Position numbers and translations under genes: made by a program. Shown in pieces: positions 32,910 through 35,365 of a DNA stretch of 64,000 nt. Position 1 is the first letter of the stretch; each line of letters begins with the position of its first letter. Where the stretch lies: NCBI GenBank assembly GCA_051955985.1, contig JBQCGD010000036.1, forward strand, positions 4,306 through 68,305. The letters are read 5' to 3'. The notes under the pieces were generated by a model. That model was not told where the DNA came from. It saw only the letters and a program-made list of their open reading frames with translations, and did not search any database. This DNA comes from Phycisphaerae bacterium. GTDB lineage: Bacteria; Planctomycetota; Phycisphaerae; WQYP01.

Positions 32910-33199
32910 GAGAATTTCTCCAAATGAGCCTCATCCTCGCGATAAACCGCGGACGTTCCGCGGCCGATCGCCTCCTCGCGCACCTAAATGCGCGGCAGAA
33001 CTCTCTTCATGTGCCCGCGCCGCCAGTGGGCCTCATGGAAATTGGCTCACCACCGGACGCGCACCGACTCCCCGGCGACCGCAACACGCACCGCGTTCGC
33101 AAAAAGAGCCTCTCAGCCGTTGATGCGACAACTCACGCTGACTGCCTGGATGTGTAAGATGAGGCCTGGATGAAGGGCCTCGTTGGATGTGGCAACTTC

Positions 33200-33227
33200 A
33201 TTATGCCAAAGGAACAACACGAGTCAA
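33200..33227 (-). promoter_or_regulatory. Sigma70-like promoter with extended -10 for pilin-like gene 1
   Basis: Minus strand TTGACT-16 bp-CATAAT with TGn extension, preceded by an AT-rich tract. Confidence 0.65.
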
Positions 33228-33357
33228 TAAATAAATGTAACCCCCGCCTTATTTGCATGCTTACCAAAAAGACGCTCCCGAAGATCACCCCTCGCCCCCA
33301 CGCCTCCACCCGCGAACTGGCGCAATCGTACGGCAGCTACACTTGTTGCGCAGGGCG

Positions 33358-33397
33358 CAAACAAAGGGGCATTCCCGCTTGCACGAGAACGCCCCTG
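33358..33397 (-). terminator. Intrinsic terminator after pilin-like gene 2
   Basis: Minus strand GGGGCGTTCTCG-loop-CGGGAATGCCCC-TTTGTTTG. Confidence 0.65.
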
Positions 33398-33460
33398 CTT
33401 ATTCTGAGAAGCCCAAAGCGAACTCGCCTCAGGCCACGCTACCGATAACCGCAATACTTC

Positions 33461-34369
33461 TTATTGATTGTTTAAGTAGGCAATTGTGCCGTTCCGGATG
33501 TTCCGGAAATCATTCGCCTTCGTGCTGATCGGTTGCGTCGGCACCAAGTCCACATGCCCATCGAAGTAAGCCCAATTCGTCTTGGCATCCAGGCCGTGAT
33601 TCGTCGTGTCGCCGTGACGCGCCGCTATACGAACCAGGTATTCGCCCGGATAGACGCTGGAAACAGGGTTCGCAAGATTATTGTTGTTCGACCCTTCCAC
33701 CAGCATCAGCAGGTCCGACGGACGCGTCACCTGGTTCATGCTCCGCGTGTAGCCTTGGCCAGGATCGGCGAGCAAGGCGTCATTGCCCTGGTAATAAATG
33801 AACGGAGACATTTCCGACGCGCCGTTCTTATTCGTCGCAGCGCACACCCGCAGCGGCAACTGATACCACGTCATCACCGTCTGGTAGTTCGCGTTGGCAT
33901 AATTCACCGAATACCCGAAGTTCGTCGGATCTGCCGGGTATTGGCCACCACCGCCCGACACCAGCGTCCCCTTCGGGCAGAAGAACACCGAGTTCGTCGT
34001 CAGCGTAACCGTCGCAGAGTTCGGCTGGTTGCAATACGGCGCTTTCACGAAACCGCCACGGACAAGTTCCGCGGGCCATGAGAAACCATACTGGTACACA
34101 CCCGACGGATTGGCGTTGATGTACCCGATGATCATCTTGTTGTTGTTGTCCTGCGAATAAATCAGCAACCCCGCAGCAATGCCCTTCATGTTCGCAGCAC
34201 ACTTCACGATGTTCGCACGTTCCTTCGCCTTCCCCAGCGACGGCAGCAGAATCGAGATCAACAGCGCGATGATCGCCACCACCACCAGCAACTCGATCAG
34301 CGTGAAGCCCGAACGTGCCCGGGAGCGGCCCCAAAGGCCCGATCCCGAAACCACCTCATTCCTGACCAT
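33461..34369 (-). CDS. Prepilin-type N-terminal cleavage/methylation protein 2 with an H-X9-DG-like motif
   Basis: [44 protein letters not shown] and [23 protein letters not shown]. Confidence 0.92.
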
Positions 34370-34393
34370 AACGACTCCTCTATCAAAAATGAC

Positions 34394-34861
34394 TCATGGA
34401 TAAACCGTGTCACGCGGCCCCTCGTTCGGGTCGCCTTCCAGGATCTTCTTCCCCTCCGCGCTTGTCGCTTCCACCCACCCCGACGGCCCCGCGTCCGGCT
34501 TGCGCACAAGCATTCCCGTCGACGTGTTCAAGTCCGGATACTTCTCCGGATGCACCAGCGAATCTTCTACCTTCGCCTTCATCTCCGGCGTGAATTTGAA
34601 GTAATAACCCACCTTTACATCCGGGCTCCCCGCCACCCGGTACTTGTAGACCTTCACCACCGAAGGATTCCCTTTCGCCCCGATCTGCGGCGGCACGTCC
34701 GTCACCGGCCGTATGACCTCCGTCCCCGTGTCCTCATCAAAATAAAACGCCGTCTCCGGCTTCTTCTCCCCGCCACGCGACGTGAAGTAAAAGATGACCC
34801 CCGCCAGTACCAGCACCGCCGCCGCCACATACTTCCCGTTCTTGTTCAAAAACTCCCGCAT
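34394..34861 (-). CDS. Single-pass membrane-anchored protein, paralog B of the pilin-partner family
   Basis: GGAG SD before ATG 34861; N-terminal TM helix; ends 24 bp upstream of pilin-like gene 2, consistent with an operon. Confidence 0.85.
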   Translation of the reverse strand: MREFLNKNGKYVAAAVLVLAGVIFYFTSRGGEKKPETAFYFDEDTGTEVIRPVTDVPPQIGAKGNPSVVKVYKYRVAGSPDVKVGYYFKFTPEMKAKVEDSLVHPEKYPDLNTSTGMLVRKPDAGPSGWVEATSAEGKKILEGDPNEGPRDTVYP

Positions 34862-35249
34862 GCCGTCTCCATAAAAACGACCAAACCACGTGTCTCGAAA
34901 GATCAGTCCCGATCGACAATAACCGGACGCGCACAAATTCCGCCACAGCCGAGCGGTCGCCCGCTCGCTGCGTTGTCCCTGCAGAATCCGATGGTTCGGG
35001 GCTCCACCAAACCACGCCGCTGGGCTCCCGACGCAAGGCATGCACGCCCGCGCTGGGTCTTGGCCTTCCGACAGGATCACCACCGATGGGATGGATCACC
35101 AATCCGTAAAGATGCAGAACGCATCTTTACCGGCGAGTTCGTCGCCGGCAATTAGGCCTTCCAGTCACTGATCTACAATCGTCGCTGACCGCCTCTTTGT
35201 AAAAAATAAGGCCGGGATGAACGGCCTCTGGCAGGATGTGGTGATGTCT

Positions 35250-35277
35250 ATTATCGCAAATACTTCGCGCGAGTCAA
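35250..35277 (-). promoter_or_regulatory. Sigma70-like promoter with extended -10 for the partner B / pilin 2 operon
   Basis: Minus strand TTGACT-16 bp-GATAAT with TGn extension; same architecture as 33200-33227. Confidence 0.65.
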
Positions 35278-35365
35278 TAAATATTGTCAAACCCCACGCC
35301 ACACCTCTGCAGGGCTACGCATCGGTCGATAACTTCGCGGCTCCCAACGCATCCTCCTTGCTCAT

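Follow-up and report, generated by a model that had tools for sequence, protein, structure and literature searches.

A promoter-leader module shared by two pilin-like operons of a Phycisphaerae bacterium: a candidate structured cis-regulatory 5' leader

Described leader systems and the twin leaders

Verrucomicrobiota and Planctomycetota have hugely expanded sets of prepilin-type proteins with small partner genes, and to our knowledge almost nothing is known about the function or control of these proteins. In our study, a 64,000-nt stretch of a Phycisphaerae bacterium genome (the window; contig JBQCGD010000036.1, positions 4,306 to 68,305) was analysed, in which two operons encoding pilin-like proteins each follow a promoter and a long 5' untranslated region (5' UTR), termed leader 1 and leader 2 (Table 1). 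Both promoters and the first part of both leaders were found to be homologous, and this common module contains an unpaired 5' tail followed by two predicted stem-loops, P1 and P2. By kind it appears from its sequence to be a structured cis-regulatory 5' leader and not a new class, and we hold with moderate confidence that it is a cis-acting 5'-UTR element which is recognised by one common factor and couples both operons.

In ompA-type 5' stabilisers, the hairpin must sit within a few nucleotides of the 5' end. Like such stabiliser leaders, the leaders described here start from a strong promoter, carry a hairpin close to the 5' end and form a long 5' UTR ahead of a gene for an abundant surface or envelope protein. 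However, 11-15 unpaired nucleotides come before P1 here (counted from the predicted starts), and conservation extends to the unpaired sequences and the loop, a sign of sequence-specific reading. The two copies agree at every letter of the unpaired 8-mer, the 7-nt loop and GUCAGCG, beside diverged neighbours, and this pattern fits sequence-specific recognition better than a purely protective hairpin. CsrA/RsmA leaders and sponge RNAs present GGA in hairpin loops, with the consensus RUACARGGAUGU. The module is similar to these in that a short motif recurs two or three times at a spacing of ~18 nt, once within a hairpin loop, whereas its transcribed strand has CAUCC, the complement of GGAUG. GGAUG itself lies on the plus strand, where the promoter scan shows no promoter-like site; the reading as an antisense CsrA sponge was rejected on this ground and because the fold is weaker on that strand. 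Two CsrA-family genes are present in the own genome (L229 and L230, on contigs C141 and C84), and one of the matches lies in a 348-codon frame, much longer than the usual CsrA.

Leaders of RfaH-controlled operons carry the 12-nt ops element GGCGGTAGnnTG (PMC5995543, PMC9562583), and UpxY genes head nucleotide-sugar dehydrogenase loci (PMC11685472). The leaders studied here agree with ops/RfaH, UpxY and LoaP leaders in a short conserved sense-strand element, a long leader and a surface-structure operon. For leaders of DUF1559 or prepilin genes, nothing relevant was found among the papers listed for these terms.

Promoters, shared blocks and predicted fold

The scan of positions 31000-36000 gave exactly two promoter-like sites, promoters 1 and 2, each with 10/12 matches (shuffles, 1.5 +/- 1.0). 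Both are of sigma-70 type with an extended -10 (TTGACT-16-CATAAT and TTGACT-16-GATAAT, with TG ahead of each -10) and lie on the minus strand, in agreement with an earlier sequence-only reading, which had described twin promoters with 16-nt spacers. The 14-mer TATTTATTGACTCG, in which an A/T-rich UP-like block joins the -35, is exact in both copies, and a GGCGNGGGGTT block is conserved ~10 nt further upstream of it. The middle of the spacer is nearly fully diverged between the two promoters, the hexamers and the upstream block being identical. Because a third promoter of the own genome (C119:15353-15400, plus strand; TTGACA, 17 nt, TATAAG) begins with the same TATTTATTGAC, the A/T-rich block looks like a general strong-promoter feature of the host organism. 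This third promoter sits ~35 nt ahead of the gene for a 775-aa secreted protein. A sigma-54 promoter was rejected by eye, as the GG-to-GC spacing is 3 nt too long in leader 1 and GG is absent from leader 2.

Downstream of the promoters, the shared blocks come in the same order, namely CCACATCC after both promoters, P1 with its TTCATCC loop, AGGCRGTCAGCG, TCGCCGG and, much later, the 13-mer ACCGGACGCGCAC. The homology spans ~60 nt upstream plus the first 95-120 transcribed nucleotides, as counted from the predicted starts. BLAST of the own genome with one core returns just the other core (E 9.5e-6, 71%), and the transcribed parts alone reach a local score of 50, the maximum in 500 shuffles being 27. 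As the cores find only each other genome-wide and the transcribed parts exceed every shuffle, the similarity is beyond chance and the leaders are taken to be truly homologous, as had been claimed. The pattern AGGCC-N-TTCATCC-N-GGCCT was found at 33162-33180 and 35209-35227 (2 matches vs 0.34 expected; 2/100 shuffles reach 2). AGGCRGTCAGCG, at 33136-33147 and 35183-35194, has 3 occurrences in the 5.83-Mb genome, the third being 3' of an unrelated gene. The 13-mer has no other site in the genome, and its score as a local alignment of the leader remainders is reached by 1/500 shuffles. The hairpin, the 12-nt block and the 13-mer all lie at, or within 1 nt of, the positions previously assigned to them. 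No small frame common to both leaders was seen by eye and a conserved upstream open reading frame was rejected; the 229-codon extension of the partner frame is also non-coding in appearance (by eye).

The first ~95 nt of the two leaders were folded together with RNAalifold, and the consensus fold consists of P1 and P2 with 17 pairs (6 in P1, to which leader 2 adds a seventh, and 11 in P2). Twelve of the 17 pairs are invariant, and all 5 that vary remain paired, four by a change of G-C or A-U to G-U and one through a double change. At -19.25 kcal/mol, the consensus energy lies far below the -7.3 +/- 2.7 of column shuffles, of which 1/1000 reach it, and slid controls pair 6-53% of cells vs 100% for the consensus structure. 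The fold also has a strand bias, with z -4.09 on the sense strand (0/500) and z -2.24 on the antisense strand (2%), where P2 is largely lost. The weaker antisense fold is due to four G-U pairs, which argues for an RNA rather than a DNA palindrome.

The strand bias bears directly on a DNA-level explanation, in which the AGGCC-N9-GGCCT inverted repeat and the CATCC repeats would be operator sites of a transcription factor controlling both promoters. The blocks lie at +1 to +57 from the predicted starts, which is the usual place of a repressor operator, P1 is a perfect palindrome in both copies and CATCCAGGC occurs twice in leader 1, 20 nt apart. An operator is nevertheless improbable, because the G-U pairs used in P2 and at the base of P1 are mismatches on the other strand and the consensus fold is much weaker there. 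Moreover, the 9-nt spacer of the palindrome is conserved (7/9), which is unusual for operator spacers, and the 14-bp spacing of the half-sites is, by our own reading, off one helical face.

Apart from these pairing features, the U-runs near the stem-loops have to be considered. P1 of leader 2 with its U-run fits the simple terminator pattern and was called terminator-like, and in leader 1 a U5 run comes after P2. In an attenuation or processive antitermination leader, such early hairpins would stop most transcripts, and GGCRGT-C-AGCG would serve as an ops-like pause site at which an elongation factor is recruited. We consider this reading to be quite improbable, since the U-runs come after different hairpins in the two leaders. 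An intrinsic terminator was called at the homologous hairpin in leader 2 alone (35228-35208), P1 of leader 1 being followed by CATCTTACAC, and no conserved alternative antiterminator pairing is present. The block itself resembles ops, as given in the cited papers, at 11/12 positions in leader 1 and 10/12 in leader 2 when one inserted base is allowed; the 12-nt element as such is absent from the non-template strand, where the leaders read GGCAGTCAGCGTG and GGCGGTCAGCGAC. The insertion falls in the loop that RfaH reads, leader 2 is without the TG pause dinucleotide and the studied systems are from a phylum other than the host's. Further, the third genomic copy of the block lies 3' of a gene, and the resemblance was noticed post hoc among many possible motifs.

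A possible elongation factor is present in the genome, in which one NusG gene is the housekeeping one beside rplK and a second is UpxY/RfaH-like (77.8 bits vs a cut-off of 100). This paralogue, however, stands at the head of a nucleotide-sugar dehydrogenase locus and has no apparent link to the pilin operons, and the block is absent upstream of it (by eye). It lies at L228:1246-1800 on the minus strand of contig C167, directly upstream of the dehydrogenase gene; Bacteroides capsule loci have this gene order, which is seen here in a PVC-type genome.

The sequence-only reading had also proposed a leader-derived small RNA. In this case, the promoter-2 transcript would end at P1 and its U-run (35228-35208, then ATTTTTT) and give an RNA of ~45 nt with the UUCAUCC loop as seed. 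As a common feature of the two leaders this could not be upheld, as the U-run follows P1 in leader 2 only. The stem has just 7 bp, a strain variant has lost one base of the U-run and no conserved target complementarity was found in the leaders, hence a small RNA is very improbable for leader 2 also. At C60:12664-12686 of the own genome (plus strand), the same loop letters recur in a terminator-like hairpin (GTTCATCCA) ahead of TTTTT, probably by coincidence.

Divergence, strain variants and further copies

The two pilin-like proteins are 40% identical. In their best-conserved 60 codons, the third base is common in 23/44 identical-residue codons at a GC3 of 70-75%, and because the third base is kept in just this number, the silent sites appear close to saturation and the genes are judged to be old paralogues. 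The non-coding block from ~-60 to +120 has 109/182 identical columns, and the matches are clustered (62 runs vs 88 expected; 0/5000 shuffles as low), gap columns contributing to this result. The identity of the homologous non-coding part is 66-71%. Since a recent conversion tract would be uniform and nearly identical, we read the shared blocks as held by selection and not as recently copied.

Four public runs were examined for strain variants, and in three of them (X5, X12 and X9) the region is covered by contigs with ~93-97% identity to the window; the statements that follow hold for the differences listed and cannot prove conservation. A variant common to X5 and X12 (two runs, two studies) has both sides changed yet paired at 32951/32959, 32947/32963 and 32946/32964, the last being a swap of G-U to U-G that pairs on the sense strand alone. 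These three double changes speak directly, though on a small scale, for leader 1 being maintained as a folded RNA. An alternative source of the paired changes is template-switch mutation in a quasi-palindrome, and the hairpin concerned (32939-32971) is a hot spot of strain differences in which the loop and the internal loop have changed too. All substitutions listed for X5 and X12 in leader 1 fall at 32945-33043 and none at 33044-33190; in this interval the differences listed are two single-base length changes in the U-run. Among the RNA-library contigs over leader 1, one ends at 33190, by the predicted start, and an overlapping one runs on to 33393; they are from a single study, DNA may be present and contigs show no ends, hence no conclusion on the start site is drawn from them.

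The searches for further copies added no third module. When both cores were compared by BLAST with the own genome and 60 relatives, nothing but fragments of 16-59 nt (best E 0.0056) came up beyond the two copies, and a two-sequence nhmmer profile run on the own genome and 29 partner-gene loci of relatives found the two copies only, the next match being at E >= 2. The leader was found at none of these 29 loci. With the covariance model R1, 0/44 other genomes of the family had a match at E <= 0.1, and four weak matches were at E 0.108-0.936; the order-level search with R1 took in the same 45 genomes as the family-level one. Both the leader and a partner-gene homologue are missing from the only further genome of the genus, which is 84% complete. 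A scan of 185,579 species genomes for the P1 pattern gave at least 119 stretches, and among the matches listed these are chance-like with unrelated flanks (L144-L211); nhmmer on the stretches matched the pattern region alone (best E 9.4e-4 among the matches listed). In a metagenome scan with the partner protein, 9 of 255 pattern stretches encode distant relatives (best 64% over 22 residues), none giving a usable locus. The Rfam 15 covariance models gave 6 matches at E <= 10 within 30000-38000 (best 22.6 bits vs a gathering threshold of 50), none of which is within 32910-33240 or 34862-35290. The sequence-only reading had likewise matched the leaders to no known riboswitch, and this is borne out; a riboswitch would be a conserved aptamer across many taxa, whereas here two copies are present in one of the genomes of the family. 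The promoter-leader module is thus probably private to one uncultured species.

This narrow occurrence, with two copies 2 kb apart in one genome, also favours the module being a relic of the duplication or of an old gene-conversion tract, in which the promoter elements alone would be functional and the transcribed blocks with their foldability would be leftovers. By our estimate, perfect runs of 7-14 nt are not very improbable at ~60-70% identity, and the P1 stem is without compensatory change. We regard a relic as unlikely, because the clustering of matches exceeds a uniform-divergence model, the consensus fold beats 999/1000 column shuffles with a strand bias and 5/5 variable pairs remain paired. 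The extra matches outside the core (TCGCCGG and the 13-mer) also preserve their order, and a recently converted tract would far exceed 66-71% identity.

In the explanation that we prefer, the two loci would be paralogous expression modules, each joining a strong promoter of housekeeping type to the same initial ~95-120 nt of a long 5' leader. Following an old duplication, selection may have kept the promoter elements, the unpaired 5' CCACAUCC and the two stem-loops, that is, the GC-rich P1 with its UUCAUCC loop and P2 starting with GGCRGUCAGCG, and the remainder of the leaders would have drifted apart. The folded 5' module would act in cis on the mRNA, and one trans-acting factor, protein or RNA, would read it sequence-specifically. 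Both pilin-like operons would in this way be jointly regulated after transcription starts, at the level of mRNA stability, early termination or translation. The likeliest contact points are two exposed CAUCC motifs, in the 5' tail and in the P1 loop, which are 17-19 nt apart.

Several results weigh against this explanation. The transcription starts and the leader lengths are predictions from the -10 positions. The consensus structure came from the same alignment that was used to score it, and with two sequences covariation statistics are powerless (245/500 shuffles equal the observed counts). The sole variation in the P1 stem is a G-C to G-U change at its base, and the stem is thus without compensatory change. 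Whole leaders fold modestly better than shuffles (z -1.89, 8/200, and z -2.41, 1/100), and the full-length minimum-energy fold of leader 1 replaces P1 by a long-range helix with the region ahead of the ribosome-binding site. Pairing of the 5' part with the translation start has z -3.1 in leader 1 (2/1000) and z -0.7 in leader 2 (214/1000), and being significant in leader 1 alone it was rejected as a common feature. A conserved partner sequence for the CAUCC motifs was looked for in the leaders and not found. The leader-2 core (35176-35307) is not unusually invariant in the strain variant, which has 7 substitutions and 1 U-run deletion per 132 nt. Hairpins with the UUCAUCC loop are not enriched genome-wide (22/1478 occurrences, 1.5% vs 1.2% in controls), and a genome-wide family of them was rejected. 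Of the earlier proposal of a new cis-regulatory RNA motif, the selected-looking blocks and the common sense-biased fold stand, whereas its generality does not, there being just two copies and none in the 44 other family genomes, with no compensatory change in P1.

A further reading is rather improbable, in which a regulator dedicated to the pilin-like operons of this PVC-type bacterium, acting post-transcriptionally or on elongation, would have the 5' module as its receptor and read the two exposed CAUCC motifs in a fixed fold. Such a receptor might mirror the logic of the GGA-reading Csr system or act as an anti-Shine-Dalgarno mimic. If true, the large and functionally obscure family of prepilin-type proteins in Verrucomicrobiota and Planctomycetota would gain its first regulatory RNA element. 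With promoter and leader conserved together, two or more such operons would be both strongly driven and co-regulated, and the module gives a concrete handle for reporter and pull-down work. Its general importance is limited for now, the element being private to one uncultured species and the mechanism a proposal.

The pilin-like operons and their neighbourhood

The host genome has 62% G+C and turns up in rhizosphere runs. All genes around the pilin-like operons are on the minus strand, and the features of the locus are collected in Table 1. As had been noted from the sequence, the first gene downstream differs between the leaders, being a prepilin-type gene after leader 1 and the partner gene after leader 2. 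The further perfect stems described for leader 2 were also recovered, and they fold better than all shuffles.

Table 1. Positions of the promoters, leaders, RNA elements and genes of the two pilin-like operons in the window
Feature	Position	Strand	Remarks
Frame of 755 codons	37633-35366	-	No family; lies before promoter 2
Promoter 2	35250..35300	-	GGCGNGGGGTT block 35300-35290; TATTTATTGACTCG 35283-35270; 16-nt spacer; TG-extended -10 GATAAT 35255-35250
Leader 2	34862..35243	-	~381 nt; predicted start ~35243-35242, placed from -10 position alone; ATG at 34861
P1, leader 2	35208..35228	-	7-bp stem, 7-nt loop UUCAUCC, then UUAUUUUUU (35207-35199); terminator-like
P2, leader 2	35155..35193	-	Interrupted 11-bp stem-loop starting with GGCGGUCAGCG
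Two adjoining perfect hairpins, leader 2 only	35106..35148	-	35148-35130 and 35130-35106; z -3.37, 0/200 shuffles as good
13-mer copy, leader 2	34922..34934	-	Sense GUGCGCGUCCGGU; 61 nt ahead of ATG
Partner gene	34394..34861	-	155 aa; N-terminal membrane anchor; no Pfam/NCBIfam family
Prepilin-type gene 2	33461..34369	-	302 aa; GspG-like N-terminus; in operon with partner gene
Intrinsic-terminator-like hairpin	33365..33396	-	Closes operon 2; 14 pairs, then TTGTTT
Promoter 1	33200..33248	-	GGCGGGGGTT block 33248-33239; TATTTATTGACTCG 33233-33220; 16-nt spacer; TG-extended -10 CATAAT 33205-33200
Leader 1	32910..33193	-	~283 nt; predicted start ~33193-33190, placed from -10 position alone; ATG at 32909
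P1, leader 1	33161..33181	-	6-bp stem, 9-nt loop CUUCAUCCA; no U-run
P2, leader 1	33107..33146	-	Interrupted 11-bp stem-loop starting with GGCAGUCAGCG, then CUUUUUG
13-mer copy, leader 1	33052..33064	-	143 nt ahead of ATG
GC-rich hairpin, leader 1	32939..32971	-	30-62 nt ahead of ATG
Prepilin-type gene 1	31866..32909	-	347 aa; GGAG 8 nt ahead of ATG

Both pilin-like proteins have the N-terminal cleavage/methylation motif (PF07963, 34.8 and 31.4 bits; cut-off 21.2) and are above the cut-off of TIGR02532, which places them among the prepilin-type proteins; DUF1559 reached 17.1 bits only, under its cut-off of 23.3. No gene of a secretion or pilus machinery was seen in the scan of 24 neighbouring frames. 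The start of the partner gene is supported by a GGAG 5 nt ahead of its ATG. The partner protein clusters with hypothetical proteins of Verrucomicrobiota and Planctomycetota, and homologues (loci L064-L092) are present in 34/44 other genomes of the family. Four more copies were found in the own genome, where the copies adjoin pilin-like genes (contigs C70, C117 and C172); by a motif-based check, a pilin-like neighbour is present at just 2/29 partner-gene loci of other genomes. A 151-aa paralogue with 37% identity to the partner protein is encoded at 31306-31761 on the plus strand, convergent with pilin gene 1, and the 205-codon minus-strand frame that overlaps it (31252-31869) is probably no gene. 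Judging the starts from the GGAG sites, the leader peptides of both prepilins are unusually long, with 27 and 21 residues before the G|F site (32831-32909 and 34309-34369, minus strand).

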